A stretch of 64,000 nt of DNA from Raillietiella orientalis (GCA_036172245.1 JAYWIR010000072.1:310001-374000), one strand, 5' to 3'. Counted from the first letter of the stretch, positions 6,942-61,640 are shown. The notes: generated by a model from the sequence alone, not told the origin. Program-made: numbers and translations.

Positions 6942-7092
6942 CAGTCGAGCGCCGATGCCTGCATGAACGCAGGAAGCAGAAGCAGAAACTTTTCGGCATA
7001 GGTCGACACGGCATGCGTGCCAGGACATGAGCTCGGTACGGTTGCCAAAGTCTCCTTGTATGCTCTTAGCACCAACTCAAACTAGATGCTGA
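6942..7092 (-). mobile_element. Short RT fragment
   Basis: Minus strand reads FELVLRAYKETLATVPSSCPGTHAVSTYAEKFLLLLP. Confidence 0.8.
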
Positions 7093-7978: not shown

Positions 7979-7999
7979 AAAATCAAATCCTTTACGAGC

Positions 8000-24920: not shown

Positions 24921-25225
24921 TGTTCACGCCCCATCAGCGCAGAAAGCCTCAGCACCAGGGGAATGAGTTCCGCCGCGAAGCACTGGAAGAACTCCTCAGG
25001 CAGACCATCCTCACCTGGCGCCTTGCGCTTCTTGAAACCCGCTATGGCGGAAGAAACTTCTTCCGCCGTGAAGGGCAAGTGAAGAGTGGCGCTTTCCTCC
25101 TCGTCGACCGCAGGGGAATCCGCCGGCGGAAGCAGCCCCGAGAGACTGCGTTCCGTCGGCTCCCTAGCATACAACGAGAATTAGAAGCGCCTTCGGAGGC
25201 AACGCACGGCGGACGCAATTGTTGT
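24921..25225 (-). mobile_element. ORF2 linker / RT start fragment
   Basis: LYAREPTERSL..KKRKAPGEDGLPEEFFQCF; very similar to 53680-53950. Confidence 0.88.
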
Positions 25226-27802
25226 CCGCTCCGTGGATAGGGAGTTTTTCTTTCCTGGTGTTCCGTGTGTGTTTCGCGGCCGTTGACAGGCAGAAATGCC
25301 TGTGAACGCCGCAGTTTCAGGTGAGGGAGGCGGGAAGACCGCGTCTCCCAAGCGAAAGGAGGTGGGATCACGCCCCACCACTTCTTCTGAACCCGCCACT
25401 ACAGCGAGGGCCTGGAGCGCGGTGGCAGCGTCGATAACACCCGATGTCGCCGCCGAAATCCAATCCTACATCCAGGAGGGCTACAATCCGGCCCTCCTGT
25501 ACAAGGTAGGCATTTTATATTCCCCGTTAAGGGCGCGAAAGTGCGGCAATGCCATCAAAAAGATGGGCATTGCCGACCATGAAATTCTTTGCCTCTCTAT
25601 ACGGAGCGGAGGGCAGTTGGCGGAGCTCATCTGCAAGGATGCAGCTCTTACCCACAAGATGCTCTGCACGCCCGTACAATTTGAGGGCAGGAATTTACTC
25701 CCACACACGGTGGACCACTCCATTGTGGTCCACCTAACAGGGACAACAGTGCGGATGGATGAGAACGCCATCCGCGCTGAACTGGAAAAATACGCAAGCG
25801 TTTTCGCGATGTGGAGAAAGCCCAACACCTTCGGAGTGAATGGTGCATTTAGTGGGCGAGTAGGCGCACGCGCGACGCTTCGAGAAAGCGTACAGCTTCC
25901 CCACAAGCTCCAAATTGGCGACGAGTTCGTCGACATTTGGTTTGTGGGGAAACCTAAGTATTCTGGAAATTGTAAGTCGTTCAAGCATTTGAAAAAGCGG
26001 TGCCCGGACGCAGTTTACCTAAAGTGCTGCGCGAATGGCCACAAAAAGTGGTGTGCCCGATGACCGTCGCTCCAACACCGGAACTTCCGCAAAAGAAGGA
26101 AGAGAAGGCACAAATAGTGATAAACCACACAAAAGGGGATCAGCCGTCGGCTCCGACAAAAGTCGCGCAGCAGGAAAGGGACTCGGTACAGGAGCTCCCG
26201 GAAAAGACTGCCTACGAGAAAGCCTGGCATCTGGTCACCCGTAAAATAAAAATCGTCAAAAAACCGCGCCCGCACCGGAGAAAGTGGTAAAGGGCAAGGG
26301 GAAGGTCGCGCCACGCCCAACAATCAAAGCGTGCAGCGTGGCCATCAAACGCGAGCCGGGGATCGATACTCGCTCCGCTGACGGATCGATGCGATGTGAC
26401 GTCACGCCAGCTGTTCAAGCCGCCGCCGCGCGAACGCCGACGCCGCGACAAAGTCGCGAGCCCAGCGTGAGCAGCGACGACCGGGACTTCAACAAGGCGG
26501 CGGAAGAGTTGGCAGCCATGCTCCAGCAGCCTCCCAAGGCCCAGAAGAAGGCCTTGAGGCGTCCGGCTGAGGCGAAAGGACCGGAGACTTCCGAGTCCGA
26601 AGCCGAAGCCGGCAACGCTCCGGCTGTCGCTCTCCCGAAGCGCAAAGCGGGCCGCAAGGTAGGCAACCCGCGGCGCTCCGCACCTCCACCGGCGGAGGAG
26701 GAAATGCGGTCGGACCACGACGACGGGGAGGCGATGTCCGCGAGGTCTCGCGACTCCTCGCCGGAGACGTCCCTGGCCAAGCAGGATCCTCCAACCACCA
26801 CCACAACCACCGACGGACCGCCTCCTTGCGAGCAACAGCCCGTCGCAATGGATACACAACTCCCGCCTGCTGAACAGCAGGCGGAGGACGGTAAGCAAAC
26901 ACCATAAACCCACCAACGCGTGGACTCTCCTCCTGCCGGCGACTGCGCGTAATCTGTTGGAACGTCAACGGGTTGCGCGACGACGGCAAGAGGAGAGAAG
27001 TGGCCGCCAGCCTGCGGGACTTCGATCTGGCGCTTCTGCAGGAGACGCACGTTCTCCACGCAGATGAGGCCCAGGAAATCTAACAGATCGCAGGCGGGCG
27101 GCTCGTATACCAAAACGGGAGAGACCACACCCGCGGTGTGGCTTTCATGCTGAAGCCAGCCATCGTTAATGCGCTGCGCGACGTGCACTTCGACGGGGAA
27201 GGTCAAATCGAGGAGCTTGTTGCCAAGTGGTCCGACGCGATCGACCTCGTCGTGACCAACGTGTACGCGCCCGGCACGAGCCTTAGGCGCGGGGAACGCA
27301 CTGCGTTCTTCGAAGGCCTGCGGCGAGATTGGCTGGCCGAAGCAGACATGCGAAAGGCGCACCTCATTGCCGGGGACTTTAACGTCCTCCTTCTGGTAGG
27401 TGCGCCCGACATTCGCGCACAGCTGGCCAACGAGATGTGCGCTGCCATGCACGCGCGCAACTTGTTGGCCGGTGACGCCGGGACGGAGACGAGGATCGAC
27501 CACATGTTCCTCGACAACCACCTGTGTTCGCGAGTGGGAAATCGAGGGGCAGTGCCATCCGAACTTTCCGACCATCTGCGGCTCGTGCTAGAAATACACC
27601 CGCGCGGTAGAGGTCCACCCTCCACAGCGTGGCGTTTTCCAGGGGACTGGTTGCGCCTCGCAGGAGCAGCGCAACATCTTAGCTCTTTCCTGCAAGGCTT
27701 TCATCTGCAGTCGCTCGCGGACTGAAACGACTTGAAGAGCTCAGACCGCGAGTTCTGCGACCAGTTTCCCCTGAACCGTCTCCCTCCAGGTTTCGGCGTT
27801 AT
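25226..27802 (+). mobile_element. 5' end, ORF1 (frameshifted) and APE, cut at PPGFG
   Basis: ORFs 25296-26063, 26000-26290 and 26284-26907; WNVNGL, LLQE, NVYAP, GDFN, IDH, SDH. Confidence 0.9.
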
Positions 27803-29903
27803 CACCCGGGTACGCCCGGGGCGTTTATTATTAGACTCTACATGCGTGGTACAAGGCCCCACCACGGCCGTAAACACAGGACCTGTCGGGACACCGAGAC
27901 GCAGCCCGGCGTGGCACTCCGCGACAGCGAAGGGGGATGGGGATAAGACAAAAAGAAAAATAAAAAGAAACAAACAAAAAGAAGTTGGAGGGCAAGGAAG
28001 GGATCACTGGTCGCTGTATGGAGGGCCCGACCGTCGAACGAAGTCCTCGAGATCAGTCTGCATATTTCCCAGTTGGGGCCATCCGGCAGCTCTTCGCAAG
28101 AGCCGTTGGGCATACGGGATGACATATCTGGCCTGTGGACCCACTTCTTCGTTGTTGGCTCCGCTCCATGCCGCCACGATGCTTCTTACTCAGCACAATG
28201 CTGCGATGGCTGCGGCTGGCTGCAGTGCGTCCTTCACGAAGAGGAGCCGAAGAACGTCTCTGGGGGTGCTGCCCGTAGGGAGCCCGAGGGTCGCCCCGAA
28301 CCGTTCTCAAAAGGGGTCGGAGGGCAGCACAATCCACAATAAGGTGGGGAAGCGACTTCCGCTCTCCGCACCTGGCACACGCAGGATCCACAGCTCCCCT
28401 CGTCCAGTGCAAGCGGCGCGCGTTGCAGGGTAGACCCCAGTGCAACAAAAGCAACGCCGACTCTTGCCACTTAAGAAGCAGGATTCTGGATTCTTTCATC
28501 ATCCGATGCCACTTCAGCTCAACCCTGGGGATGGCGAGCAGCTCGCCCCATCTTAATAATCCTCGCGGCTGGACGTTCGGGGTAGTGGCGTCGGCCAGTT
28601 CTCCTGTTGTCCAGCCGCTGATCAACTTCTCGCGTCCCTCGATGCAGCAGGAGACTTGCCACCTTCGCGTTTGGCTGCTGTGAAGTGCTCTCTTCAGGAA
28701 GGGCAGCGCCCTAGCTTGGCAGGTCGTCTCTGTCCACATGCATCTTGCTGGACTCTCCAGGAGATTCCGCAGCGTGCAGCGGGCGAAAAGGCTGCATCTA
28801 AGACGATTCCACGTTTCGTGGCTCCTCTGGTTAACCGCTGCCCACGTTTTAATATTCTCCTCCAGTCAGGCGGGGAAGTTGGCGGGGCAGCAAACCATCC
28901 AGCTGTTCCCCTTCGCCAATGTTGCCATGCGCCCGAGCAGTATAACGCATCTTCGCATCTTCCGGCCACGGCTCAGAAGAAAAGTCGCGAGTCCATCGCA
29001 CCGGGACACACGGCTGGCCAGGAGGCGGGCCGGAGTGCACCAAGGGGTGCTCCACATCTTCGCTGCGATATCGAGGGTTCGCCACCGCAGCTGCTTCTCC
29101 ACGCGCTCCAGCGTTAGGAGGCTCAGACCGCCGTCCCGACGCGGAGCGCACAAGTCCTTCAGAGCGACACGGGGCCTCCCCTTGCCCCAAAGGGCGATAC
29201 GGAGGAGGTCCTTTGTCCGCTTTTTAATTCTCTCTGTGGGGGCGCAAACAAAAAGCGGGGGGCGGAGGAGAGGAGCCGCGAAGGCGTTTCAAACCGCGGC
29301 CCGTTCCGGCAAGTGAAACATGCCTTCCAGGAACGGGCCGATCGCCGCCTAGACTTTTTGGAGGAAGCCGGACCACGCTTCCGCAGGGGAGTAGTTTCCC
29401 AACGGCACACCAAGGTACTTGAAGCACCTCGCCGTGGGGATCCCCAGACGGACCCAGTCCTGCTGCCCTGCCCACGCCGCACCTATTGGCACAACCGACG
29501 ACTTCGCCCTGTTAACCTGCAGTCCGGTCCCGCGGCTGAGCAGATCGAAGAAGTCTCCGACCGCCTTTGCCGAAGTGGTCATTGGCAACAAGAGCAGAAG
29601 ATCGTCGGCGTACGCTGCAACGGCGGGCGTGCCGGGGGACGAGCTCGGCAATGGGGCCAGAGTCACCCTGTACCCTCTCAGCAACAACTCAATCTAGGTG
29701 CTGAAGAGCAGGGGGCTCAGGCTATCTCCCTGCCTTATGCCCCGCCGCACCGGCACGCCATACACCTTTTGACTGCTGAAAGAGACGGTAATTATCGCAT
29801 TCCTCCAGCAAAAGCGCAGGTAGGAAATCAGGGAGAATGGGAAGCCCAAGCGACCCAGGAGCTCCAAGAGGAGTTCCTGGTCTACACAGTCGAACGACTT
29901 GTG
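27803..29903 (-). mobile_element. ORF2 from RT motif (HKSFDC) to 3' end (subfamily C ORF2 type)
   Basis: RRGIRQGDSLSP, AYADD, LERVEKQLRWRTL, CARCGE..HLIVDC; terminal hairpin at 27803-27829. Confidence 0.92.
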
Positions 29904-31890
29904 AGCGGGCAGACCGTGCACGGCATGCCGGTGCGGCGTGGGATCCGGCATTGAGACAGCCTGAGCCCCTTGCTCTTCAGTACCTACTTTGAGTTGGTAC
30001 TGAGAGCGTACAGGGGAACTCTGGTGCACCTGCCGCACGACTGTGTCGGTACGCCGGCCGTTTCAGCATACGCGGACGACCTTCTGCTGCTGCTCCCTAT
30101 GTCCACCCCGGCTGCGGCGGTCGAGGAGTTCTTCGACCTGCTGCAACGTGGAACTGGACTTACGGTGAACAGGGCGAAGTCGTCCGTGATGCCAGTTGGT
30201 GCGGCGTGGGCAGGGCAGCAGGACTGGGTCCGTTTGGGAATCCCCACGGTGAGGCACTTCAAGTACCTTGGTGTGCCGTTGGGGGACTACTCCCATGCGA
30301 AAGCGTGGTCCGGCTGCCTCGAAAAAGTAGAGACGGCGATCGTCCCGTTCCGAGGCGGCAGGTTTTTTCTGCCTGAACGGGCCGCGGTTTGGAACACGTC
30401 CGCGGCTCCTCTCCTCCGCCCCCTGCTTTTTGTTTTCCCCCCCCAGAGAGAGAATCAAAAAGGGGAAAAAGGACCTTCTCCGTATCGTCCTTTGGGGCAA
30501 CGGGAGGGCCCGAGTCCGCTTAAAGGACTTGTGCGCTCCTGGTCGGGATGGTGGTCTGGGCCTCCTGACACTGGAGCGGCTGGAGCTTCAGCTCCAGTTC
30601 CGCTTGTCGGCACTCGTTCCAGAGTTGTGGTGCACCTGTTGGTGCGTCCCTGCACGTCTCCTTCTCCAGCAAGCCACCGGCAAGACGGGACTGACGTCGC
30701 TTCTTGTACTCCGTCGCCGCGTCAACCGATGCGGACTCCAGCTACGGACGGTGGCTGCTCTGTATCGGAAAAACCCAGGATTGCTCACCTGTCGCCCGTT
30801 TAGCGGTAGTGCCTGGTTGCAGGAAACCGTTCGAACGTAGGGACAGTTCGGCATGCAACGTTCCCAACAGGAACAAAGTTTCCTGTTTGGGGGTTACAGA
30901 AGTTGCACGCTCCGCGAGATCCTGGAGGATCCAAAGAACTGAGTGTGGGCAGGAAGAACCCCCCTCGCTGCTGCGCTGCCATCCCTGATGGAACATCTGG
31001 ACAGCAATGTTGCGGCGAAGTGGGTGGTTACAGTAACAATCTCCGGAAAGGAGAAGAAGATAGGAGAGTGGAAGACGGGCAAGTTAACAGACGCTGCGAC
31101 CCCGAGTACGCCTCCCAATGGACGTCTGCGCTGGGGCGCGCTGCTCGATGTTCCCATTGAACATCTTGAATGGCCCCCGGTGCTCATGAACACTTCCGCC
31201 CTTCCCTTCAAATGGCAGGAGTCGGCTCTCCTGTTGCAGCACTGAAGACTCCCCAGCAACGCCCGCCGACACCACTGGACCTGGGGAGCGGTGGACCCCA
31301 ATTGCGTCAGTTGTGGGGAACGGTAGTCCCTCCCCCACCTGCTAGTGGATTGTGTTGCCCTTCGGCCCCTTTGGTTTCGCTTTGCCGCGGCCATCGGTCT
31401 CCCCGGCGGCAACCCCAGGGACGCACTGGAAGCCCTCTTCGTTGACGACGCCCTTCGGCCAGCGGCCTCGTTAGCAGCTTTGTGCTGCCTACGCGGGATC
31501 GTCACCGCTTGGAGCAAGGCTAAGGGAGGACAACGCCACCAGGGTGCCATCCAGACAGCCTCCCAGTTTTTGAGGCGGGCGTCCCGATAGTCCCACCTGG
31601 ATCCAGGAATACAAAAGGAGCTTGCCGGCATCCTGCAAAGGATGCAACGGCCCCACCAGCAACTGTGATCCCTTCCCTTACCCTCCCTACTTTTCTTTTC
31701 TTTTTTTTTTGTTTTGTTTTTCGTTTTTCCCCCTTCCTCCTGCTGCCGCGGTGGACCGAACCGATCTGCGAACCGGTGACCCGGCAGGATCTGTGTTTCT
31801 TCGTGCGTGGCTGGAGCAATGGTCGAGCGACCGCACGTCTTTGTAAATGTTTATTTTACAATAAACGCCCCGGCGTAATCCGGGTGAAAA
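29904..31890 (+). mobile_element. 5'-truncated subfamily D element flanked by a target-site duplication
   Basis: RT to 3' end AATAAACGCCCCGGCGTAATCCGGGTG-AAAA; flanks TCGAACGACTTGTG (29890-29903) and TCGAACGCTTTGTG (31891-31904). Confidence 0.92.
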
Positions 31891-32160
31891 TCGAACGCTT
31901 TGTGGAGGTCGACTGCGAGCGCTAGGGCTCACTTCCCCGCCCAAGGGTCCCTTCCCAGTCCGGCTGGAGGCCGCAATGTGGGGTTGCCGACTTTCCCTAT
32001 CCCTTTCTTTTCTCTTCTCTGCAGGTGCACCCATGTGCTTGCGAAGAAGAGGTTGGCATCCATACTTCGCCCGGGAACAGCAAAAGTCTGCTTTGGGCTA
32101 ATTACGGATTCTGCCACCTGCCCCAGACGCGAAGCCCATAGCCCTGTGATCAACTTGGCG
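31891..32160 (-). mobile_element. RT fragment (AKL to KAFD); upstream continuation of 27803-29903
   Basis: AKLITGLWASRLG..AVPGRSM..AVDLHKAFD. Confidence 0.9.
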
Positions 32161-35133
32161 TGCGGACCTGTTTTTGTAGCGCTCCTCTGCGCCTGGTGTA
32201 AAGCGGTTGATTTCGATTGTGTTTGTGTGTGAAGCATCTGCGATGTCCAATGGCAGAAATGCCTAAGGACACCGCGATGGATATAGGAGGGGGAGAGGCT
32301 TGCTCCTCTCCCCAACCCACGGAGGTGGGGGCAACCGCCCCCACGGAGGCGACGGCAGCCGTACCCCTGAAAAAGGGGGCAACCGCCGCCTCAGAAGCGA
32401 GGGCAGAGGCCCCCTTGAAAAAGGGGGCAAAAGCCCCGCTGGAACAGGGTGCAACCGCCCCCTTGAAAAAGGGGACAACCATAACCCTGGAAAAGCGCAC
32501 AACCGCCTCCTTGAAAAAGGGGGCACCTGCACCCTCGAATGCGTCTTCGGCATCGCCGAATACCTGGAGTTCAGTGGCTGCAGCCCCATCTCCTGCAGCC
32601 CTCGCCGAGCAGAAAGCCTACTTGGAGCAGGGATACGAGCCGTTTCTGTTATACAAGGTAGGCAATCTGTTTATCGGGAACACCGCTCGCAACTTCGAAA
32701 GGGAGTTGCAGTGGTTGAATGTAAAAGAGGAAGATCTGGAAGGTCTTTCCGTGTTGAGTGGTGGTCAACGGGTGGAGGTGACTTGCAGAAATGCAAGCCT
32801 TGCTCAACACCTACTGAATACGTCAAACACACTGGAAGACCGAAAGGTTTTCCCGGTAACGGAGGATCGCTCCGTGGTGACGCACCTCACGGAAGTCACC
32901 CTCCGCATGTCGAAAGCCGACGTGCAGGAGTAACTCGGAAAATACGAAACGGTTCACGCGCTATGGCCCAAGCCCTACGTCTTCCAGAGTTACGGAAGAC
33001 TGTTTAGTGGCATGGCTGGTGCGCGTGTAACCGTCCACGAAAACGGTGGGCTACCCCACAAACAAGACGTCGGCAACGAGACCGTCGACGTCTGGTACGT
33101 GGGCAAGACCAAGTACTGTGGACACTGTGATGCCACAGGGCACCTGAAAAAGCGGTGCCCTCACATCCAGTGTTTCCACTGTGGAGAGAAGATCCACCTC
33201 CGCAAAGTGTGCCCGAAGCGCGAACCCTTGGCTCCCGCTGCCTTGAAAAAGGCCAAAGGGAAACGCGCGGGGGCCACGGAAAAGCCTGCGAAGGCACCCG
33301 TGAGACGGAACCCACAGCCGGAGCCCGAGCCCGTGCAGGAAACGCCGGTCGTGGAATCCACCGACGACGCTGAAAAGAGCGAAGGCTGGCAGAAGGCGAA
33401 GCCTAAAGCCAAGAAAATTAAGAAAACCGAAGGGTCGACAGCGGAACCCGCGACGTCTCCTTTAAATAGGAGACAACGCCGCGCGTTGATCAGCGAATGT
33501 TCGGTCGCTTTGGAGCGTGTGGAGGTACCTGACACCGCCACCGGGGGAGATATCCCCCTCGTCGACGCCGACGATAACGCGATCACGCAAGGCGAACCCT
33601 CTGTGCAAACAGAGGGGGAACCGCGTGACGCGCTCGCCGCTATCGACGAGGCCGCCTTCCAGCAGGCGGCGGAAGAGCTCGCGGCCGAACTCGCCGACCG
33701 TGAGAACGGCGCGCAAAAGGCCTTGCGAAGGCCGGCCGCGACCAGGGCACCTCCGACAGGTGACCACGACCCGGATGCCGGAAGTGCGTCCTCTTCCACG
33801 TAGGCGCCTCCGAAGAACACTGGACGGAAGTTCAAGAATCCCAAGAGGCGCATCCCGACGAAGAGCGAGGGGGAAGCCGGCAGCGTGGGAACGGAGGGAG
33901 GAATTTTCCCACCCTCCGCCACCGAGCAGCGGGCCACCCCCATGGAGGAGAGGGAGCAGGTAGGGCATTGCCTCCCCCTTCCACCGGTGGAGCCTGCGGA
34001 GAAGATGGTCATGGAAGAGGGGGAGCAGACAGCTGAGAACCGCTCCCCCCTGCCGTCCAACGCAGTCAAGGAATCGGCCCCCATGGAAGAGGGGAAGCAG
34101 GTGCGTGAAGCATGCTTCCTTCAACCGTTGCGGTCCGCCGAGAAATCGGCCCCCATGGAGGTGGGAGAACCGCTAGGCGGTGCCCCCATGCCTCCATCCG
34201 TCCCGCCCGACCAGGTGGCGGGAGCATCATTGCCACTTTTCCGGGAATAACACCTGAGCTCGCCTGTCGCCGTCGATTGCGTGTGGCATGTTAAAACGTC
34301 CACAGGCTGCGCGACGACAGCAACAGACAAGACACGGCAGCCACCCTCCGTGACTTCGACCTGGCACTCCTGCAGGAGATCCACGTGATCACCGGGGAGA
34401 ACGCCCAGGAGATCGAGAGGATCGCAGGGGGGCGGCTGGTGTGGCAATGCGGCACCCGATACACCTGCGGCGTCGCGTTTTTCATGAAGCCGGCGGTCGA
34501 CGCTGGCGTGAAGGGCGTGCGCTTCGACGAAGCCGGTCGTGTCGGCCAGCTGATTCTTAGATGGTCCGACACGATCGACCTCGTCGTAACAAACGTATAC
34601 GCCCCGAGCGGTTATAACAGGTACCGGGAACGCGCGGCGTTCCTGGAAAGCCTGAAGCACGAATGACTGGTGGAAGCGAACGTGCGCGTGGCTCACCTGA
34701 TAGCGGGAGACTTCAATCTCCGCCTGCTATCAGGTGAGCTACGCACACAGGAACGGACGGCTAACGAGTTTTGCGCTGCCATGCGCACGCGCAACTTGTT
34801 AGGGGAACTCCCGGAAATGGTCAGCAGCATCGACCACGTCTTCCTGGACGTCGACCTCTGCTCGCAGGTCGGCAAACGGGAGAAAAATGCGTCGGAACTG
34901 TCTGACCATTCCAGATTGATATTCGAGGTGAGTCCGGGCGACAAGGGACCCCCGTCCAGGGCGTGGCGGTTGCCTGGGGACTGGACGCGGCTCTCAGGTG
35001 CGAAGGAACACCTTCGCGAATTCCTGAGAGGCGTCACCCTCCGCAGTCTCAAAGATTGGAACCTCTTCAAGGCCTCGGTCCGCGAGTTCTGCGAGGAGTT
35101 CCCCCTGCACCGCCTGGCTCCCGGATTTAAGGA
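32161..35133 (+). mobile_element. 5' end, ORF1 and APE (subfamily B), cut at APGF
   Basis: ORF1 pieces 32217-32933, 33012-33803 (CGHCDATGHLKKRC) and 33885-34250; APE 34270-35130. Confidence 0.92.
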
Positions 35134-35932
35134 GGACGCACCGTCAATACAACCGACACCCCGCGATCGTCTCGATCTCCTGGACGTCTGCCGCTGTGAT
35201 CACGAGGATCTTCTGCAGCAGGGCCAGGTCGAGCTCACGCAGGGTGTCGGCCGTATCTCCCCTGTTACCGTCGTCGCGCTGCCCGTTGACGTTCCAACAG
35301 GCGACGCGAATCCGACGGCGACTGGCGAGCCCAGGTGTTACTCCTGGGAAGATGGCGATGCGGCGTCCGCCACCTGTTGGGACGGGACGCTAGGTGGAGT
35401 AGGAGGGTCAGGCGCTGCGTGCACCTAGTTTCCCTCCTCCATCGGTAACGGCGCGTCGAGCGGATCACCCTCAGGTGGGGTCGCGCCTACCTGTTGGCCC
35501 TCCTCCATGGGGGCGGGCTGTTCAGGCTCGGCGACTGCAGGGAGGACTTCGCCCCCCTGCTCACCCTCCTCCATGGGGTTGGCCGGCTCGACGGCTTCCG
35601 AGCGTGGGAGTTCCCCCTCCGGGATTCCCACGCTACCGCTAGCTTCCTGCTTCTCCACCTCGCTGGTGGAGGGGAGGCGCCTCCTGGGTTTCTGGGACTT
35701 GCGTCCCGACTTCCTGGGGGGTGCCTCCGAAAAAGAGGATGCACTTCCAGCCCCCAGGTCCGACTCACCTGTGGGGGCCTTTTTCGCGGGAGCCTCCCCC
35801 ACACCTACCTCCATCGTGGTGTCCTCAGGCATCGCTGCCATCGGACACCAACGATGTTCCACACCAAACAACACAAGAAAAAAACCGCTTTCTATCGACT
35901 CACTCGGGAGCGAAGGAAACACACGTCCACTC
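35134..35932 (-). mobile_element. Subfamily C 5' end with internally deleted ORF1 and APE start
   Basis: Near-identical to 59323-59460 joined to 60715-61375. Confidence 0.9.
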
Positions 35933-38877
35933 GCCAAGGGATTCGGCGGATGGGCTCGCAACGAACGGGCGTATTTGTACGCGCGTCGTCACGAGAGGAA
36001 CCCCAATGTCCGTCGCCTGGCCGAATACCGCGCCCGAGCCGAGCGACAAGCCTGGCAATCCGGGTCAGCCAGCATGCTGGATAACCTGGGCCGGGAACGT
36101 TCGTCCCCGTCTGCGGTACGGAATCTCGTGGGGTGTTTTTATTCCTCCCTTTACCTTAAAACACCACCCGAACAAGACGCCTCGCGGCGATTGCTCATGA
36201 GTGGTTCCGTGGCGATAGGGGAGGAGGAGAGAGAAAGCCTTGATGAGCCTTTCACGACCGGTGAAATTCTCGCCGGTATCAAAAGGCTCAAGAGGCGTAA
36301 GGCGCCAGGGGAGGACGGCTTGCCCGCGGAGTTCTTTCAGAGTTTCGCGGAAGAGCTGGCCCCCCTGGTGCTCTAGTTTACAAGGCGAATCCGAGACGAA
36401 GGCGATGTTGTTGCCTCGTTTTGGTCAGCCAGGGTAAGGGTCCTCCCGAAGGGAGGAGACCTCAGGAAACTTTGCAACTGGCGTCCGATCACGATTGTGA
36501 ACTCGGACGCCAAGTTGATTGCCGGGCTGTGGGCTTCGCGATTGGGGCAAGTGTCCAATTCCATAATTAGCCCGGAGCAGATTTACGCTGTTCCCGGGCG
36601 AAGTATGGAGGACAACCTCTTCTTCGCGAGCACATGGATGCACGCGCAGCGGAGTAATAAAGAAGGGAAAGGGAAAATTTGCAACCCTACTTTGGGGCCG
36701 CCAGTGGGACAGGGAAGGGACCCTTATGCGGGAAAGTGGGCGTTAGCGATCGCAGTCGACCTCCATAAGGCATTCGACTGTGTTGACCAGGAACTCCTCT
36801 TGAAGCTCCTGGGTCGCATGGGCTTCCCACCCTCCTTGATTACCTACCTGCGCTCTTGCTGGCGGAACGCGATAATCTCAATCACTTTCAGTGGACAAAA
36901 GGTGTTTGGCGTGCCGGTGCGGCGGGGCATAAGGCAGGGCGATAGCCTCAGCCCCCTGCTCTTGAGCACCTACTTTGAGTTGGTGCTGAGAGCGTACAGG
37001 GTGACTTTGTCCCCCTTGCCGAGCTCGTGTCCCGGCACGCCAGCCGTAGCGGCGTATGCCGACGATCTTCTGCTCCTCTTACCTATGTCCATCCCGGCGA
37101 AGGCGGTCGGAGATTTCTTCGACCTGCTTAGCCGTGGGACCGGATTACAGGTTAACAGGGCAAAGTCGTCACTGTTGCCAGTTGGAGCGACGTGGGCAGG
37201 GCAGCAGGACTAAGTCCGTCTGGGGATCCCCACGGTGAGGTGCATCAAGTACCTCGGTGTGCCGTTGGGGGACTTCTCCCCTGCGGAAGCGTGGTCCAGC
37301 TGCCTCCAAAAAGTCGAGACGGCGATCGGCCCGTTCCTGGAAGGCAAGTTTCACTTGCCGGAACGGGCCGCGGTTTGTAACGCCTTCGCGGCCCTCATCC
37401 TCTGCGCCTTGCTTTTTGTTTGCCCCGCCCCCGTGGAATCAAAAAAGCGGACGAAGGACCTCCTCCGCATAGCTCTTTGGGGCAAGGGGAGGCCCCGTGT
37501 CCCTTTGAAGGACTTGTGCGCTCCGCGTCGGGACGGCGGTCTCAGCATCCTGACGCTGGAGCGCGTGGAAATCCAGCTGCGATGGCGGACCCTCGCCATC
37601 GCAGCGAAGATGTGGAGCACCGCTTGGTGCATTCTGGCCCGCCTCCTGGCCAGACGTGTGTCCCGCTGCGAAGGACTTGCATCGTTTCTTCTGTGCCCTG
37701 GCCGGAAGATTCGAAGATGCGGTCTAATGCTCGGCCGCATGGCAACCCTGGCAAAGGAGAACGACTGGATGGTTTGTTGCCCTGCTAACTCCTCCGCTTG
37801 GCTGGAAGAGACTGCTGGCACCTGGGCCAAGCAGAACCAGAGGTGCGAAGACCGGATGAACTGCCTGCGAGTCGGCTTTTACGCCCGCCGCACTCTCCGT
37901 GAAATTCTTGAATTTCCACCGAGTTGCACGTGGGCGGAAGGCACACCCTTTGTTACGGCGATGCTCTTCCTCCAAAGGGCGCTTCACCGAAGCCGGAAGC
38001 CAAGGTGGCAAGTCTGCTGCCGTATCGCAGGCAGAGAGAAGATGATGAGCGGCTGGACCATGGGAGAGTTGACAGATGCAACGAGCCCTAGTCTCCAGCC
38101 GCGTGGATTAAGAAGATGGGGCGACCTGCTCGGCATTCGATTGGATGACCTGGAGTGGCCCCCGGTTCTACTTGGATCCAGGATTCTCCCCTTGAAGTGG
38201 CAAGAATCGGCGCTTCTGTGGCTGCATTGGGGTCTACCCTGCAACGCGCGCCGCTTCCACTGGACGCGGGGAAGAGTAAATCCTGCGTGTGCCAGGTGTG
38301 GGGAGCGGGATTCGCTCCCCCACCTCTTAGTTGAATGCCCTGCCGTTCTGATTCTTTGGGATCGTCTGAAAACGGCCCTCCGGATACCGGATGGTGGCAA
38401 TGTTGGATGTGTCTTCAGTCTTTTCTTCGTGCGGGACGCCCTCAGTCCAGCCGCAGCCCTGGCAGCACTTTGCTGCATTCGTGGTATCGTGGCGGCCTGG
38501 AATGATGCCGAAGATGAAGACTGCATAGTGAGGGACGTCATCGAGTATGCTTCTCGCTTCCTGCAGAGAGCTACCCGATGGCCCTATCTAGGAAAGCTGA
38601 GAATGGAACTAGAAGGCATCCTGCAAAGGATGGGCGCTCCCAGCAGTTTTCTGTGATCCCTTTCCGGCCCTCCAAACTTTTTTTTGTGGTTTGTTTTTCT
38701 CTTTTATTTTATTTTTGTTTTTTCCTCCATCCTTCTCCACTGCCGAGGAGAGCCTCACCGGGCTGCGTCCCGGTGTCCCGGCAGTTCCGGTATTGCGTGG
38801 CCGTCAGTGGGGCCTTGTACCACGTTCTGTATTGACCGTTGAAATGTTTTTAATAAACGTCCCGGCGTATCCGGGTG
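35933..38877 (+). mobile_element. ORF2 from AKGFG to 3' end (subfamily C ORF2 type), few stops
   Basis: ORFs 36497-37213 and 37235-38656; AATAAA at 38852-38857 then CGTCCCGGCGTATCCGGGTG. Confidence 0.93.
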
Positions 38878-44400: not shown

Positions 44401-44594
44401 TTATTTTCGTTTCTTTGTGTTCACCAACCCTTCACACGGTTCTCAAAACTGTTACTCTGGCCTGCGTGCCAGCAATATTCTCTTCATTCTTGTTCAGTCG
44501 TCGGTTGGGAGTTTGGTTCCCAACTGGTTTATTTTGTAAAATTCCTTTTTTTTGCTTCTGTTATATGGAATAAACGCTTCGGCGTGACCGAGTG
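41475..44594 (+). mobile_element. ORF2 from LEDWNDLK to 3' end (subfamily E)
   Basis: ORFs 41535-41990, 42003-42260 and 42270-42824 (AYADD); AATAAA at 44569 then CGCTTCGGCGTGACCGAGTG. Confidence 0.92.
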
Positions 44595-46524: not shown

Positions 46525-46549
46525 TCGAGCGCATCAGGCGTTCGATTTT

Positions 46550-51223: not shown

Positions 51224-54200
51224 CACCCGGGTGCGCCGGGGCGTTTATTATAAACTATCCGGGAACAGGGTTCCCGGACAAAGGGGAAAACAAGAGACGA
51301 AGGGGGTTGGATCCCCGACACGCAGGTCGGTGTGCCGAAAGTCCGGAACGGGAGGGAAGGGACCACAAACAAACTACTATATAAAAAAATAAAAGAAAAA
51401 TATGGAGGGCAGGGGACAGGGGTCTTTGGTAAATCCGTTCCTTCCTTTCAAAACCGGCGATGGATGCCGGCGATCTCTCTCCTTACGCCCTGTGGCAGAT
51501 GGGCCCACTCGGCAGCCGAAGACATGTTTGCGCTGGCTAATCCGGTGGGCCGACGAAGGATGGCGGCCAGCTTCTCCAACTCTCGGTGAGCCTTGTCGAT
51601 GGCGCGGGTGCAACACACGGTTGCAACGACAGCACCCAATGACAGGCCGCCTGGCGTGAAGAAGCAACGCATCAACTCCCTCGCGGTGTCCCCCTGGTGC
51701 AGGAGAGCTGAGGCCAGCCTCCGCCAGAGTCCTAGAAGGGCACCGCAGTCCAGGAGCAGGTGCGGGAGCGTTTCCACTTCCCCGCACCGCTTACAGTTTG
51801 GGGTAACGACTCCCCCGGAAACAAGGTTCGTGCGCTGGTTGGAGTGAAAACCCCAATGCACGAGCATAATCACGTCCTGCTTCCACGAAAGGGGGAACAC
51901 AGAAGTGTTCAGACACGAGGGAGGAACCACAAGTTCTTCAGGATACACACTCAAGTGTTCGCTCCACCGAAGGAGTCCCTTCGGAACGTGGCGAGGTGTG
52001 GCGGCGTCCGCCAGCTCGCAAGTCTTCCAGCCGCCAATAGGTCGCGTTGTTCCTGCGATGGTGCAGGCGACCTCCCATCTCGCCGCTTCGCAACTGTCAT
52101 CTCTTGCCCTGAGGGCTGACAGCGCGTCTTCGAGGGGGGTGACGGCCAGGCGGGTGCACTTCTCCTGGCTGTTGCACACCTCATCCACCGTGCAGTACGG
52201 GAAGAGGTGAGCGCAACGGAGTTCCAGGAGGGAAACATCCTGGTGCTTTGCCCAGCCATGAAACGGTTCCTGCCGCCAGGCTTCAAAGTTCGTTGGGCGG
52301 CAGGAGATCCATTCCTGGGCTTCCAGGAGCCGATACAGCGGTTTCAAGGGGAAACCGAAGCTTCTCGTGGCGCGCTCCGTGTGCGGCCGCAGCGACAGAA
52401 GTCCATCGCTGCCTGTGCAGCGCCGCAGAGGCAGGCGCGCGGGAGCGCACCACGGAGTGGACCAAAGGTTGGCGCACAGGGCCAACATCCGAAGCTGCAC
52501 CTGCAGCTCGATTCTCTCGAGCGTCAGGATGCCTAAGCCAGCATCCCGACGCGGAGCCGCCAAGTCTTTGAGGCGGATCCTGGACCTCGCAGGTCCCCAC
52601 AGAGCGTTCCTCAACAGGATGTGCGCCTGGAGCTTGGCCGAGTAGGGGGGCGGGCAAACAAAAAGCAGGGGGCGCAAGAGAGGGGCAACGAAGGCGTTCC
52701 ATATCGTTGCCCGCTCCGGCAGGACGAACCTGCCATGGTGGAACGGGCTCAGGGCATTCGAAGCCTTCCGAAGGCAGTCCGACCACACTTCCACTGGGCT
52801 GATGTTCCCCAGCGGAACGCCCAGATATTGCACGGAGGAAGCGGTCGGGATCCCCAGGCGGATCCAGTCGGACTGCCCCTCATACGCCGCACCAATAGGT
52901 ACGACCACGCTCTTGCTCCGATTTACGCTCATGCCCGCTCCCCGGCGAATCAGCTCGAGGAAATCCTCGAGACTGGATGCCGGGGTGGTCATGGGTGAGA
53001 GGAGGAGCAGGTCGTCAGCATAGGCCGCCACGGACGGCGTTCCTGGACAAGAGCTCGGCAGGTTGGCCAGCGTCAGCCTGTACGCCCTCAGCACCAACTC
53101 AAAGAAGATGCTGAAGAGCAACGGGCTTAAGCTGTCGCCCTGCCTGATGCTTCGCCGCACCGGCACGCCGTACACGTGGCAGCCGCTAAAAGAGATGGAA
53201 ATGAGCGCGTGGCGCCAGCAAGCGCGCAAATACGCCACGAGGTGCACCGGGAGACCGAGGCGTTCCAGGAGCTCCAGCAGGAGATCCTGATTTACGCAAT
53301 CGAACGTCTTGCGGAGATCGACCGCGACCGCCAAGGCACCCGGCGCTTCCCCAGGCCGAATGCAGCGACGCCTATCCTCGGCAGCCGCAGACGCGCTTGC
53401 CTGGCTGTCGTGCGCCACGCAGCGTTGCAGCTCGAGCCACGTGCGCGCGAAGAACAGGTTCGCCTCCATGGACCGCCCGGGAACAGCGTAACACTGCTCC
53501 GGACTTACCACAGATCCAGCGATGCTGCCCAGGCGCGCGACCCACAGCCTGGAGAACAACTTGACGTCCGCATTCACCAAGGTGATGGGACGCCAGTTGC
53601 TTAAATGGCGCATGTCTCCGCCTTTCGGCAACAGACGCACCCTTGCTGAGCGAAACGAGGCCGGGACATTGCCCGTCTCTCGCATCAGCGCAGAAAGCCT
53701 CAGCACCAGGGGGATGAGTTCCGCCGCGAAGCACTGGAAGAACTCCGCAGGCAGACCATCCTCACCTGGCGCCTTGCGCTTCTTGAGGCCCGCTATGGCG
53801 GAAGACACTTCTTCCGCCGTGAAAGGGAAGTCAAGAGTGGCGCGTTACTCCTCGTCGACCGCCGGGGAATCCGCCGGCATAAGCAGCTCCGAGAGACTGC
53901 GTTCCGTCGGCTCCCTAGCGTACAACAAGGAGTAATAGCGCTTTAGGAGGCGGCGAACTTCGGCCGCGCCGGAGCACTCCAGTCCCTGGTGGTCAAGCAG
54001 ACAAGCTGCTCCTGACTGCCAGACCTGGCGCTCGGCCTTGGCCTTGTACTCCGCAAGGTACCCGACGTCCGGGCATCGGAAGAATTGGCGGGCCTGCAGA
54101 AACTCTCTGCTGTTGGCCACGCCTTCCCCGAAGCCACGGGGAAGCAGGCGCAAGGGGAACCGGCTGCAGAACTCGCGGACCGATCTTTTCAGATCGTCTC

Positions 54201-56384: not shown

Positions 56385-59322
56385 CACCCGGATGTGCCGG
56401 GGCATTTATTTCTTGGAAATAAAAATACATGAAATATCGCGTGGTGAACTCGAAGGTTCACCACTCCAAAACAGCCTGCTGGTTACCGGCTCCATGCCGG
56501 AGAGGTCCTTCCGATGCGCGGGGATGGGAAATAAAGAAAAACAAAAAGAAACAAAAAGTTCAAATGTGGGGAGGGAACAGATGTTGTAGGGGTGGGAGGG
56601 CCGGGAAGGGATCACGGTGCGCGTGGAAAGGTCCTCTAGATCCTATTCAGGATCCGCACAAGCTGAGTCCTTTCAGCGCCAAAGTGGCGCCACTTGCAGA
56701 CACTGCGCGCGAGAAGGCGAGTCCAGTGTAAGGCGTTGCCGGTTGGCTGACGCCTTCTTCTGGTGGCGTTCCAAGCCGCCACTATTTCTCTGATGCAGCA
56801 GAGGATTGCTACACTAGCGGGCGGGGACAAGGCGTCACTACAGAAGAACCTGAAAACCTCCTTTGGGCCGCATCCGCGCAAGTCCAGGATCACCGCGAGA
56901 CGATCCCACAAAGGGCGGAGGGCGCTACACTCAAGGAGAAGGTGGGGGAATGTTTCTTTTACCCCACACCGGTCACAATTGGGATCCACAGCCCCCCAAG
57001 TGGTGTGGTGCAGGCGTGTTTTAAATGGTAATACCCAGAGTACCACAAGCAACGCCACATCCTGCCATTTCAAGGGGAGGAATGCACTGTTCCAGGACGC
57101 TGGGGGCCACTTCATCTCCTCCGGAGATAGTCCGAGTAGCTCACCCCAGCGTCGAATTCCGTTCGGAGAGACACTCGGCGTCGCAGCGTCAGCTAGTTGC
57201 CAAGAAGTCCACGCCTTTATCGATTGTGTCCTGCCGCCCATAGTGCAGCACACGGTCCATTTCCCCTGCTCGCTACTGTCACTAGCATGCACAAGGAAGG
57301 GCAGCACTGGGGCGAGGGGGGTTATCAACGCCCACAGAGGCTTGTCGTGGGACTGCACGATCTCCTGCAGCGTCCAGCGGGCGTGCCTTTTCATACAAGT
57401 GTTCCTTGTGCCCGCCGGAACGTGGATCTTTTCCCAGGTGGAGACTGACTCGTGCAACCAGGCGGAGTAGTTCCCTGGGAGGCAGAAGATCCAGGCGTTC
57501 TCCCGAACCGCAACGAAGATGCGTCGCAGCATAGAGCCACAGTATGGTCTTCTGCAGACGCGCGCAGACAGAAACAACAAAAGTCCGGCGATTCCGCAGG
57601 CTCGTTGGGCCAGGAGACGTGCTGGAACGCACCAAGGCGTGTCCCACAATTCCGCCGAAAGGGCGAGAGTCCTGAATCCAAGTTGTAGTTCCATGCGCTC
57701 CAGCGTAAGTACGCCAAGTCCACCGTCCTTACGTGAAGCGCACAAGTCTTTGAGCCTCACAAGGGACCTCCCTTTGCCCCAAAGGACTGTCCTCAGGAGG
57801 CCCGCTGCTCGTTTCCGAATAAAATAAGGGGCGGGGCAAAGAAAAAGTAGGGGGCGAAGGAGGGGAGCCGCAAACGCGTTCCACACCGCGGCCCGTTCCT
57901 GCAAGTAAAACTTGCCTTCTTGGAACGGACCGATCGCCAACGCTGCCTTTTGGAGACGGTCGGACCAGGCTTCTGCTGCGCAGAAGTCCCCCAACGGTAC
58001 GCCGAGGTACTTGAAGCACCTGCCCGTGGGGATCTTCAAGCGGAACCAGTCCGACCGTCCAGCTCACGCCGAACCGACGAAGACCATGGACGACTTCGCC
58101 CTGTTCACCTCCAGGCCCGTCCCGCGGCGCAGCAACTCGAAGAAGTCCTCGAGTGCACTCGCCGGGGTGGACCCGGGAAGCAGCAGCAGAAGATCGTCTG
58201 CATAGGCGGACACGGCAGGCTTGCCGGGACACGAGCTCGGCAGGGCTGCCAGAGTTACCCTGTATGCCCTCAGCACCAACTCAAAGTAGATGCTGAAGAG
58301 CAAGGGGCTAAGGCTGTCACCCTGCCGGATGCCGCGGCGTACGGGCACGCCGTACACGTGCCGGCCGCTGAAACCAATATTGATTGACGCGTTGCGCCAG
58401 CAGGAGCGCAGGTAAGATTGAAGCACGGCAAGGAAACCCATGCGTTCCAGGAGCTCCAGAAGGAGATCCTGTTCGACGCATTCGAATGCTTTGTGCAAAT
58501 CGACCGCGACGGCAAAGGCTCCCGCCGACTCCATCCCACCCTCTGCCCGATCTTCTTGGTCAGAGGGGGGCGCGAGGCTCGCTTGACCGTCCTGTGCAAC
58601 GCGTTGTCGCGACTGCCACCATGAGCTGGCAAGGAGCAGGTTGGCCTCCATGGTTCGTACGGGAACAGCATAGGTCTGCTCGGGACTCACCACGGAAGCG
58701 GCCACCCGCCCCAAACCCTCAGCTCACAACTTGGCATACAACTTTGCGTCCGCATTCACTACTGTGATGGGACCCGAGTTGCCAATGTTGCGTAAGTCTC
58801 CTGACTTCGGCAGGAGACGTACTTTAGCTGACCGGAACGAGGCGGGAACTTCGCCGTGTTCGCGGATCAGCGCACTTAACCTAAGCACCAGGGGGGCCAG
58901 CTCTGGCGCAAAGCGATGGTAAAACTCCGCGGGCAGGCCGTCCTCCCCTGGTGCCTTCCTTCTCTTGAGCCTGTTGATGGTGGAGATCATCTCCGCCATC
59001 GTGAACGGTTCCGCCAATCTGGAACGGTCCTCCTCCTTTTGCGCGGGAGCACCAACCGGCAGCAGGCGCTGCGCGAAATTGCGCTCAGGTGTTAGTGGCG
59101 CGTACAAGGAGGAATAAAACTCCCTCACGATGCAGCTTACCTGGGCTGGGCTGGAGCGTTCTTGGCCCTGATGATCCAGCAGGCAGGCCGAGCCTGACTG
59201 CCAGGCCTGCCTCTCCGCCTCAGCCTTGAATTCAGCCAGGCGACGGACGTCGGGACGCCGGGAATAACGGCGCGCCTGGAGGTACGCCCGCTCGTTCCTG
59301 ACACCCTCGCCGAATCCCTTGG
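56385..59322 (-). mobile_element. ORF2 from AKGFG to 3' end (subfamily F)
   Basis: ORFs 58724-59401, 58064-58714 (AYADD) and 56636-58039; hairpin at 56385-56410. Confidence 0.93.
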
Positions 59323-61640
59323 CGAGTGGACGTGTGTTTCCTTCGCTCCCGAGTGAGTCGACAGGAAGCGGTTTTTTGTTGTGTTGTTTAATGTGAAACA
59401 TCGTTGGTTTCCGATGGCAGCGATGCCTGAGGACACCACGATGGAGGTAGGTGCAGGGGAGACTTGCCCACCCCCACAGCCTACAGAATCAGAGGCGTGC
59501 GCCCCGGAATCGCACTCGCCGCTCAAGGCGAGGAGCTGGAGCGCCAAGGTGGCCGCGCCGAGCGCGGAAACCATGGCCGAGATGGCGGCCTACCGGGCAG
59601 CTGAATACAAGCCCAGCTTGGTTTACCAGGTAGGCAATCTCTTTCACGGGCGAACTGCACGCGCTTTCTCGAAAGCGCTGCAGAACGCCAACGTGTTGGA
59701 AAAGGACCTTGACGGTCTATCCGTGCTCAGCGGGGGTCAGCGCGTCGAGGTTGTCTGCAAGGACATCACCTTGGCGCAAAGCTTGATTACCACTTCACTG
59801 AACGTGGACGGTTGCAAGATCCTACCAGTCACGATGGACCGCTCCGTAGTGGTATATCTGACAGGGATCGCCAGCCGCATGACGCGTTCTGCGGTTGGTG
59901 ATCAGTTAAGAAAGTATGGGGATGTTCACGCGCTATGGCGACGGCCACAATCTTCGATGGCCACGATAGCCTTTTAGGAGGGCAGGCCGCCGCGCGCGTG
60001 ACGGTGAAGGAGAGTGGGCTTCGCCACAAACTAGAGGTCAATGGCGAAGTCGTAGACCTCTGGTACGTGGGGAAACCCCGCTTTTGTGGCTACTGCAATG
60101 CAGTAGGACACTTGCGCAAGCTATGCCCGAACATTGTGTGCCACTTATGCGGAAAGAAGGGCCACGTACGCCGCGTATGCCCTAAACGCCCCACTCCGGT
60201 GCCGCCTGCTGCAAAGAAAGCACAGGCAAAACGCGGTAAACTGGTCAAAAGACCAAAAAGAGATACTGGCCGGCAGCAGCCGCTAGCCCCTTCTCCTCCC
60301 CCACAGGCGTCGGAAGAAAAACCCTCCGAAGACGCGGGAGTCCAAGACGGCTGGCAGCTGGTCAAGGCCAGGAAGGAGAAAAAGGTGCCCCCCGCGGAAC
60401 CCGCGAAAGCGGTAAAAAAGACAGCCGGCAAGGCGAAAAAACCTTGGCCGCGCTCTAAGACCATGCGGGAGTGTACGGTAGCACTGGAGCGCATAGCCGT
60501 TCCCGAGATTGCCACCCGGGGCGACGAGCCTTCCCTCGCCGTTTCCCCCGCGCTTGAGGTTCGCGACGGCGAACCCTCTGTTTACACAGAGGGTGAGCCG
60601 CGGGAAATAGCGACGGTCGAAGCCGAGGACGCCGCGTTCACTCAGGTGGCGGAGGAACTCGCGGCCACGCTGGCCGAGCGTGGGAAACCCTCGCGCAAGG
60701 CCGTGCAAAGGCCGGCACCCGCGAAAAAGGCCCCCACAGGTGAGTCGGACCTGGGGGCTGGAAGTGCATCCTCCTCCTTGGAGCCACCCCCAGGAAGTCG
60801 GGACGCAAGTCCCAGAAACCCAGGAGGCGCCTCCCCTCCACCAGCGAGGAGGAGAAGCAGGAAGGTAGCGGTGGCGTGGGAATCCCGGAGGGGGAACTCC
60901 CACGCTCGGAAGCCGTCGAGCCGGCCACCCCCATGGAGGAGGGTGAGCAGGGGGGCGAAGTCCTCCCTGCAGTCGCCGAGCCTGAAAAGCCCGCCCCCAT
61001 GGAGGAGGGTCAACAGGTAGGCGCGACCCCACCTGAGGGTGACCCGCTCGACGCGCTGTTACCCATGAAGGCGGGGGACCAGGTGCACGCAGCGCCTGAC
61101 CCTCCTCCTCCACCTAGCGTCTCGCCCCAACAGGTGGCGGACGCCGCATCGCCATCTTCCCAGGAGTAACACCTGGGCTCGCCAGCCGCCGTCGGATTCG
61201 CGCCGCCTCTTGGAACGTCAACGGGCTGCGCGACGACGGTAACAGGCGAGATACGGCCGACACCCTGCGTAAGCTCGACCTGGCCCTGCTAGAGGAGATC
61301 CACGTGATCACCGCGGCAGACGCCCAGGAGATCCAGACGTTCGCGGGGGGTCGGTTGTATTGGCGGTGCGGCCTCCTCAACACCTGCGGGGTCGCGTTCT
61401 TCGTGAAGCCGGCCATCGACGCTGCCGTGAAGAGCGTGCGCTTCGATGACGACGGTCGGGACGGTCAGCTGATTCTCAGCTGGTCCGAGTCGATCGAACT
61501 GATCGTCACGAATGTGTACGCCCCCAGCGGTAAACAGGGAGACAGCGACCGTACCAGGCTGCTGGAATCCCTGAAGCGCGACTGGCTGGCAGACACGAAC
61601 GTGCGGAAGGCTCACCTGATAGCGGGAGATTTCAATCGAG
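59323..61640 (+). mobile_element. 5' end, ORF1 and APE up to GDFN (subfamily C)
   Basis: ORFs 59381-59977 and 59935-61020 (CGYCNAVGH, CHLCGKKGH), 60876-61169; APE to AGDFN. Confidence 0.92.

Follow-up and report, generated by a model that had tools for sequence, protein, structure and literature searches.

The 64-kb window of Raillietiella orientalis DNA analyzed in this study (the whole stretch GCA_036172245.1 JAYWIR010000072.1:310001-374000, to which all results below refer) consisted entirely of decayed, mutually nested non-LTR (long terminal repeat) retrotransposons: L1-like long interspersed nuclear elements (LINEs). Four clean junctions between these elements were located at the Gly-Phe-Gly (GFG) codons that close the endonuclease part of open reading frame 2 (ORF2), with the DNA sequence GGNTTYGGYG, and the insert was antisense to its host in all of them. 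We consider it likely that a single LINE clade, comprising elements X, Y, g, and Q and closely related to M, uses target-primed reverse transcription to insert at this fixed ORF2 place of related LINEs and of itself.

Pieces were mapped by BLAST of the window against itself and against three reference stretches, and by tblastn queries of window-derived ORF1, endonuclease, and reverse transcriptase (RT) translations. Stop-to-stop frames contained the Pfam domains RVT_1, Exo_endo_phos, and zf-RVT, as well as CCHC knuckles. The best PDB match of the RT was human LINE-1 ORF2p (5.3e-30; R2 only ~1e-15), and that of the endonuclease was human L1 endonuclease (1.2e-6), the same PDB search giving no match with R1Bm or TRAS1 at E≤0.01. 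The arrangement of the L1 superfamily, an N-terminal apurinic-type endonuclease followed by RT, was found unbroken in ORF2 of element N. A protein database search with the RT gave 13 matches, mostly unnamed: the top match was 61% identical and the remainder 22-28%. The C-terminal 480 residues gave no match among longer proteins in the protein database. The nearest Atlas cluster (score 0.97) was auto-named 'Transposon TX1 uncharacterized 149 kDa protein family', which we regard as a lead only and not as establishing clade membership.

At two of the four junctions, the natural 3' end of an element lies at the GFG codons of its host. Host H1, the endonuclease region of a (+) LINE that begins near 25210 (26922..27802; tblastn with endonuclease residues 1-293), reads FPLNRLPPGFG (codons 27783-27797; DNA ...FCDQFPLNRLPPGFG) and includes GGTTTCGGCG, the target word, at 27789-27798 (+). 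The cut lies after PPGFG, and five ambiguous bases of uncertain origin (GTTAT, 27798-27802) follow; at 27802/27803 the host meets the reverse complement of an element tail, ...AATAAACGCCCCGGGCGTACCCGGGTG, the end of which is 27803. This antisense insert, Y, extends over 27803..29903 (-) from RT residue ~278 to its natural 3' end, with the tail ...CCCGGGTG. Host H3 (38878..41483, -), consisting of a 5' terminus, ORF1, and endonuclease, reads LLPAGFG (codons 38883-38897; DNA ...FCDEVPMNLLPAGFG), with the target word GGGTTTGGTG at 38882-38891 (-). The cut after PAGFG is followed by GATGC (38878-38882, GCATC on the + strand), also of uncertain origin, and then by a tail of the H1-junction type ending at 38877. 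The latter belongs to I3 (35939..38877, +), which contains RT residues 1-907, the 3' untranslated region (UTR), and the tail; its RT region forms one frame with two in-frame stops. I3 has a double role, as the insert in H3 and as the host for g.

At the other two junctions (35938/35939 and 59317/59318), the exact element 5' terminus, CTTGGCGAGTGGACGTGT..., adjoins GGATTCGGCG of an oppositely oriented host. These hosts are I3, which starts with GGATTCGGCG at 35939-35948, and P (56385..59317, -), which starts with the same bases at 59308-59317 and contains RT residues 1-900 down to its 3' end at 56385. I3 and P share 18 identical bases up to GGCG, after which only 11 of the next 18 bases are alike. 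Both inserts are young: g (35131..35938, -) retains the exact 5' terminus with 5' UTR 1-142 and, beyond an internal deletion, the part from the ORF1 C-terminus to endonuclease residue ~66-69, lacks a 3' end, and is 92-94% identical to Q (59318..61636, +), which has the exact 5' terminus, ORF1 with CCHC knuckles, and endonuclease residues 1-154. Since the 5' terminus of the Q/g type also begins E5 and M (CTTGGCGTGCGGAC..., at 32155 and 48890) beside different host sequence, CTTGGC (Ala-Lys in the reverse complement) was assigned to the insert. A fifth junction was found at ~35126-35133, where E5 (32154..35130, +), comprising a 5' terminus, ORF1, and endonuclease, breaks at APGF (GGATTT at 35123-35128), ...GCTCCCGGAT(TT), 4-6 bases before the site of the two 3' junctions. 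Joined to it, with 2-4 bases in common, is an internal point of antisense g (endonuclease residue ~66-69).

A sequence-only reading of the window had proposed five junctions at this site. All five exist, no more than a few bases from the positions given there, but they most likely represent four events, 35126-35133 and 35938/35939 being two sides of one. Its hosts cut at PPGFG (27802) and PAGFG (38878) were both found broken there, with exact antisense 3' tails; the host cut at APGF (about 35133) also has a real break, but the partner is an internal point of an element instead of a terminus. Two hosts had been described as resuming at AKGFG: the resumption is real, while 'AK' is the CTTGGC of the insert, and the hosts resume at GFG six bases further in. 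The inference of that reading that GGxTTCGG is targeted in the antisense direction is supported within the window, the four clean junctions there (4/4) being antisense at GGNTTYGGYG.

Approximately 21 element termini were mapped. For a 5.7-kb element, the probability that four of them share a single 15-bp bin in one orientation is 1.8e-8 (1.3e-5 after correction for 760 bins; 1.2e-3 with a conservative count of 3 of 17 events). GGNTTYGGYG occurs in eight copies in the window, with 3.5 expected, and every one of the four occupied copies is the GFG codons. Sorted by lineage, both Y/I3-type tails and both Q/g-type heads in the window lie at antisense GGNTTYGGYG; the heads of the related M and E5 are at a different, microhomology-linked site. 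GFG was not aligned in six distant ORF2 relatives, and its being a universally conserved motif was thus ruled out: it is confined to the family in the window.

The 3' tails of several subfamilies are closely similar, with the consensus ...AATAAA-(C/T)G-CCCGG-N5-6-CCGGGTG and no A-run. Eleven tails have a predicted 5-bp terminal hairpin (CCCGG-N5-6-CCGGG plus (G/T)TG) ~20 bases past AATAAA, two pairs of which are kept through double (compensatory) changes. AATAAA, which precedes the tail, is not known to be usual as a signal in green algae. The tail motif AATAAAYGYCCCGG-N3-5-AYCCGGGTG had no matches in a metagenome scan. Nine of the 11 hairpin tails are antisense to the host, while one looks sense and one is unassigned. 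The flanking sequence differs with the subfamily: xGFG for Y and I3; AAAATC(G/A)AA, the antisense of the RT motif (K)AFDF, for L, Z, and c7993, with three tails of the L/Z type at 31886/31887, 46549/46550, and 7978/7979; AGAAATCTC, the antisense of QEIS in the endonuclease and a subfamily-specific site, for J and c10325; and IAGGRLIV for the nearly complete N (51224-56384), whose tail (51223/51224) follows it in antisense orientation within M, 27 bases away from the J-type site. Since near-identical tails lie at different exact sites according to subfamily, a protein, most likely the endonuclease, would set the site rather than the RNA tail.

These data bear directly on the alternative that nucleic-acid pairing or DNA structure, and not sequence reading by the endonuclease, chooses the site: sense LINE RNA would pair with the resident antisense strand and expose the host sense strand to a weakly specific, T-rich nick. 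Nearly all of the mapped 3' junctions are antisense across subfamilies, including the nine hairpin tails above, the hot spots all lie within coding blocks that relatives have conserved, T-rich ends are found on the nicked strand (GATTTT, GATTTCT, GATTGT, and GTTAT), and the 5' joints show microhomology of 7-8 bases, all of which speaks for pairing. On the other hand, it does not explain how almost identical RNA tails lead to different exact sites, or how the positions are base-exact in hosts only 65-70% alike, and, on reading of the junction, the RNA 3' end was not seen to be complementary to the GFG target. We therefore regard pairing as unlikely, although it is the alternative that survives best.

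The events at the GFG site were independent. At the 5' junctions, the inserts g and Q have 93.2% identity as far as the boundary (n=147) and 93.7% across a further 668 bp by self-BLAST, whereas their hosts I3 and P are 69.4% alike (n=1708; z=-10.1), with the step located exactly at the junction. At the 3' junctions, the hosts H1 and H3 are 65.4% alike (n=881) and the inserts Y and I3 77.6% (n=2093). Differences between hosts were concentrated in the third codon position: 28/22/53% at positions 1/2/3 for H1-H3 (p=2.8e-10), 28/25/47% for H1-E5 (p=3.6e-6), and 35/27/49% for I3-P (p=4.8e-14). Y-I3 differences were likewise biased (p=8.9e-5 and 3.6e-6), and the 12 Q-g differences in ORF1 were evenly spread (4/3/5, p=0.78). 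The three cut hosts are mutually equidistant (65-67%). A host broken by an antisense insert is dead, and its later copies would diverge evenly; the third-position excess therefore indicates that hosts and inserts diverged while functional and were interrupted separately.

Twin priming, in which the head-to-head joints (35938/35939 and 59317/59318) would be 5' inversions at a fragile point of the element, produced by one retrotransposition each, fits the geometry, with an inverted 5' segment reaching the RNA 5' end and a 3' segment starting from a fixed internal point. However, the halves do not derive from one RNA, the 5' halves being 93% and the 3' halves 69% alike, and P and I3 are as distant as different subfamilies (60% over the RT-to-3' part). 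The outer flanks are also not one target, E5 (+) and H3 (-) facing each other; thus, neither the single RNA nor the single duplicated target of an L1 5' inversion was found. Furthermore, natural 3' tails cut the same 10 bases in two hosts, which inversion cannot make, leaving this explanation very improbable.

Still less credence is given to the copying, as DNA, of one ancestral composite of host and antisense insert, which would trace the junctions, as paralogues, to only one or two events. Over 3 kb, both 3' composites are indeed collinear across the junction (26922-29903 vs 39764-36764, 74.6%), and identity is similar on either side of it (65% in the host vs ~68% in the first kilobase of the insert). 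The third-position excess in broken hosts (H1-H3 and I3-P) is nevertheless impossible for a dead duplicate, the RT core of the insert is 82-92% alike compared with 65% for the hosts, and the drop from 93% to 69% falls exactly on the 5' junction boundary. The even neutral divergence of a segmental duplication was therefore not observed, with third-position excess and uneven identity in its place. The comparison of host and insert divergence suggested by the sequence-only reading has thus been made, and contradicts one duplicated locus; the independence claimed there is borne out by the excess in hosts and the step at the 5' junctions.

The inserts at the two 3' junctions (27803 and 38877) had been described as one type, and Y and I3 were found to be mutually nearest in the RT core (86%), C-terminal coding region (67%), and 3' UTR (76%), with corresponding values of at most 73/59/65% against L, Z, P, N, and J. 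Near-identity of the two 5' ends in different hosts was likewise confirmed (inserts 93.7% over 668 bp and 92-93% over the first 142-147 bp; hosts 69-72%). Identity at the 5' end of the endonuclease region is 90% for E5-M, 92% for g-Q, and 78-84% between the pairs; H1 and H3 have 69-77% identity to E5/M and g/Q, and five other copies ≤68%. What had been called 'subfamily C' is therefore a small clade with at least two sub-lineages, E5/M and g/Q being 78-84% alike.

The best parse of the nest is that H1 was cut by YH (H3 + Y), YH by X (E5 + I3), and X by g, and that P was separately cut by Q; three of the four events would then be successive generations at the same site (H1 > YH > X > g). The youngest piece of the nest is g. 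E5 and I3 are adjacent, both (+), and in register, E5 ending within the expected left duplication GGAT(TT) and I3 beginning at GGATTCGGCG, and the simplest reading is that they are the 5' and 3' halves of one 5.9-kb element, X, split by g at its own GFG site. The missing 3' end of g may be due to either internal priming after the nick was chewed back or later deletion. Y is interrupted by Z (29904-31886, +) at 29903/29904 and continues beyond it (31887..32161, -; RT residues ~194-282) to its end at the NSDAK codons, a 14-bp coordinate overlap between the Y parts flanking Z marking target duplication. The 5' terminus of X is joined to Y at these NSDAK codons, with eight bases, ACGCCAAG (32154-32161), common to the host and the reverse-complemented insert end; M is joined to L at NSDAK codons too (48889-48896), over the same eight bases. 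This is a recurrent microhomology joint rather than another nick site. On the assumption that H3 and Y form a single element (YH), the host has lost ~0.55 kb. The 5' terminus of YH (that of H3) adjoins J at endonuclease residue 264 (~41483/41484), with GCTCGAG common to both.

H1 and J were ruled out as a single host of YH because they are alike at 72.6% of 84 bases, compared with 88.6% for J-N; as H1 and J do not belong together, the parse requires a more extensive loss or a subsequent rearrangement. A parse in which H1 and I3 form one host (W) and Y and g one full-length insert was rejected: the putative duplications match at only ~10 of 14 bases; the 5' flank of W (24932-25216, 90% identical to N) is not of the lineage of H3; E5 would need a 4-kb deletion ending by chance within the hot spot; and g, the youngest piece, would fall in an old, twice-invaded element.

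Several observations weigh against fixed-site insertion by one clade. The other four of the eight GGNTTYGGYG copies, located elsewhere, are empty, and intact hosts J and N carry near-identical sites, GGCTTCGG(A/G)G, both encoding PRGFGEG (GGCTTCGGAG at 41553..41562, +, in J; GGCTTCGGGG at 54126..54135, -, in N, ORF2 of which is unbroken through the site from 55008 down to 51454). The 10-base word alone is therefore insufficient: the target is probably longer, or occupancy is incomplete. Used sites have GGYG and intact ones GGRG, in a comparison of only four vs two sites. No insertion has two clean full duplications; g in X keeps 4-6 bases of the left copy, without the 3' end of the insert. The flanks of X (xGFG of H3 and NSDAK of Y) and YH (xGFG of H1 and residue 264 of J) mismatch simple insertions and need target deletions. 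It is the parse, and nothing else, that links the 5' type (Q/g) to the 3' type (Y/I3). Across the 3' composites, 150-bp windows gave ~60-75% in the first kilobase of the insert, which comprises its C-terminus and 3' UTR, and 82-92% in the RT core, with no identity step; because identity is continuous near this junction, it cannot by itself exclude an old duplication there, which the codon-position test does. Lastly, contigs of X1, the only public run found, which are short and 90-95% alike, bridge no junction, and the region is wall-to-wall repeats, but assembly errors are the least probable explanation of all, because each junction combines an exact natural terminus with a target-duplication boundary, and the partners are antisense and of different subfamilies, whereas repeat collapse would join shared sequence in the same orientation.

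Run X1 contained 13% of the words of the window, with 202 short contigs on 26800-39900 at 90% likeness, mostly 90-95% alike. None of those listed spanned 27802/27803, 35131-35938, or 38877/38878, and no GFG-site joint was present among them, from which no conclusion on presence, absence, or assembly is drawn. One 357-base contig joined 32161 to 36468, that is, Y across the position of E5 into I3-like RT of the opposite strand. The sample of this run thus seems to contain a Y-like copy that lacks the E5 insertion.

Even if the parse fails, at least three separate insertions occurred at the GFG site, and four are probable. The following mechanism is proposed. Since the 3' end of an insert marks the primed nick, the nicked strand would be the host sense strand, which the endonuclease of the element would cut 3' of 5'-GGNTTYGGYG, within 0-5 further bases. 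The freed 3' OH would then prime copying of the element RNA from its 3' end (...AATAAA-N-CCCGG-N5-CCGGGTG), and, with priming from the host sense strand, the insert would always be antisense to the host. Cutting of the other strand just 5' of the first Gly codon would produce a target duplication of 10-15 bp, a putative size obtained by comparing 3' junction ends with 5' junction starts. When the complementary DNA end meets a short downstream match in the host (e.g., the eight-base ACGCCAAG of the NSDAK codons), the host segment between may be lost. The site would be set by the endonuclease rather than by RNA pairing.

Other junctions in the window were as follows. At 61636/61637, Q is cut at endonuclease residue ~154, ...GGAGATTTCAAT (GDFN), where the 5' end of a further element, oriented as Q is, makes a rare sense junction. 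Further 5' termini, at 25210 (the H1 element) and 4208 (an M-type copy), adjoin antisense hosts near RT residues 59-76. Two J-type tails (44594/44595 and 10336/10337; 78.6% over 1.2 kb) meet antisense hosts at identical bases, ...CAGGAGATTTCT|. Only ~20 host bases are left at 46530-46549 and 7979-7998 before a K-type 5' end in the same orientation, and these look like tandem insertions sandwiching a duplication. The hairpin tails of P (56385), x23880, and c3316 have flanks elsewhere or matched to no LINE motif; weak tblastx evidence suggests that ORF1 of N, in the same orientation, flanks P at 56384. Two more 3' regions lie near 6946 and 9130.

The distribution of tails may have a broader meaning. 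It is quite possible, if slightly short of an even chance, that these LINEs represent a radiation in which the endonuclease of each lineage reads a different conserved codon block in the genes of relatives and in its own: for example, GFG after the endonuclease, QEIS and IAGGRL within it, and KAFDF in the RT. If so, each insertion would bring a fresh, intact set of targets, the nest would be a self-renewing landing pad growing by recursion, and LINEs would be site-specific parasites of one another rather than of host genes. Fixed targeting of sibling LINEs, if true, would account for the self-building of dense LINE-only nests, explain the near-universal antisense pattern without host traps, and offer, in a natural series of closely related endonucleases that differ in their short targets, a means of learning how L1-type enzymes read DNA. 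For annotation, 'truncated' copies in such nests are often halves of one element split at predictable points. A full-text literature search, the coverage of which did not include the original Zepp papers, found no paper on LINEs with a fixed target in the coding sequence of other LINEs.

R1/R2 and the classic site-specific LINEs have one lineage, one sequence, and one orientation, and their endonuclease domain is thought to read the target; they also have a fixed duplication of short length, 14 bp in R1. Their target is a multicopy gene of the host, whereas that in the window is another retrotransposon, and the endonuclease in the window matched human L1 endonuclease but neither R1Bm nor TRAS1 at E≤0.01. 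Ordinary L1 integration is characterized by 5' microhomology, target-site deletions, twin priming, and a T-rich end of the nicked strand, and the elements in the window are similar in the 7-8 bases shared at 5' joints, putative host deletions, and T-rich nicked-strand ends. Mammalian L1 has only a loose TTTT/AA preference, whereas 3' junctions in the window fall on exactly the same base of hosts 65% alike.

One green-algal L1 lineage is known for clusters that are nested and often centromeric. Its members Zepp (Coccomyxa and Chlorella) and ZeppL (Chlamydomonas) resemble the LINEs in the window in being L1-type, GC-rich, and present in nested clusters of their own kind, but, in the parts of these papers available to us, are described without a fixed insertion site or orientation (PMC3446292, PMC8226300). 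The closest working analogue is the Tx1 group, the clade of which includes Tx1L, Keno, Kibi, and Koshi. According to the available part of one paper (PMC4494074), members of this group are inserted in transposons, including Tx1L in the piggyBac-type Tx1D, Tx1-Mar in Mariner-N4_AMi, Tx1-8_Crp and Tx1-4_AMi in LTR retrotransposons, and Tx1-9_AMi in Harbinger elements, and also in small nuclear RNA (snRNA) genes and microsatellites, at fixed places and orientations: Tx1-Mar, for instance, is found around position 240 in the opposite direction and around position 830 in the same direction. As described there, the group shares with the window membership of the L1 superfamily, an apurinic-type endonuclease, a position and orientation within a multicopy transposon that are fixed (in the window, apparently so), and related families with different sites (PMC4494074). 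Its duplication of ~16 bp and tandem copies sandwiching the duplication may be compared with the tandem-looking 46530-46549 and 7979-7998 (PMC4494074). The window differs from the Tx1 group, as far as the group is covered in that part of the paper, in that sibling LINEs, and the lineage itself, provide the target with their coding sequence, and in that several subfamilies each use a different conserved codon block (PMC4494074). Known targets of site-specific LINEs are ribosomal DNA, telomeres, snRNA genes, microsatellites, DNA transposons, and LTR elements, and a conserved codon block of sibling LINEs would represent a new kind.

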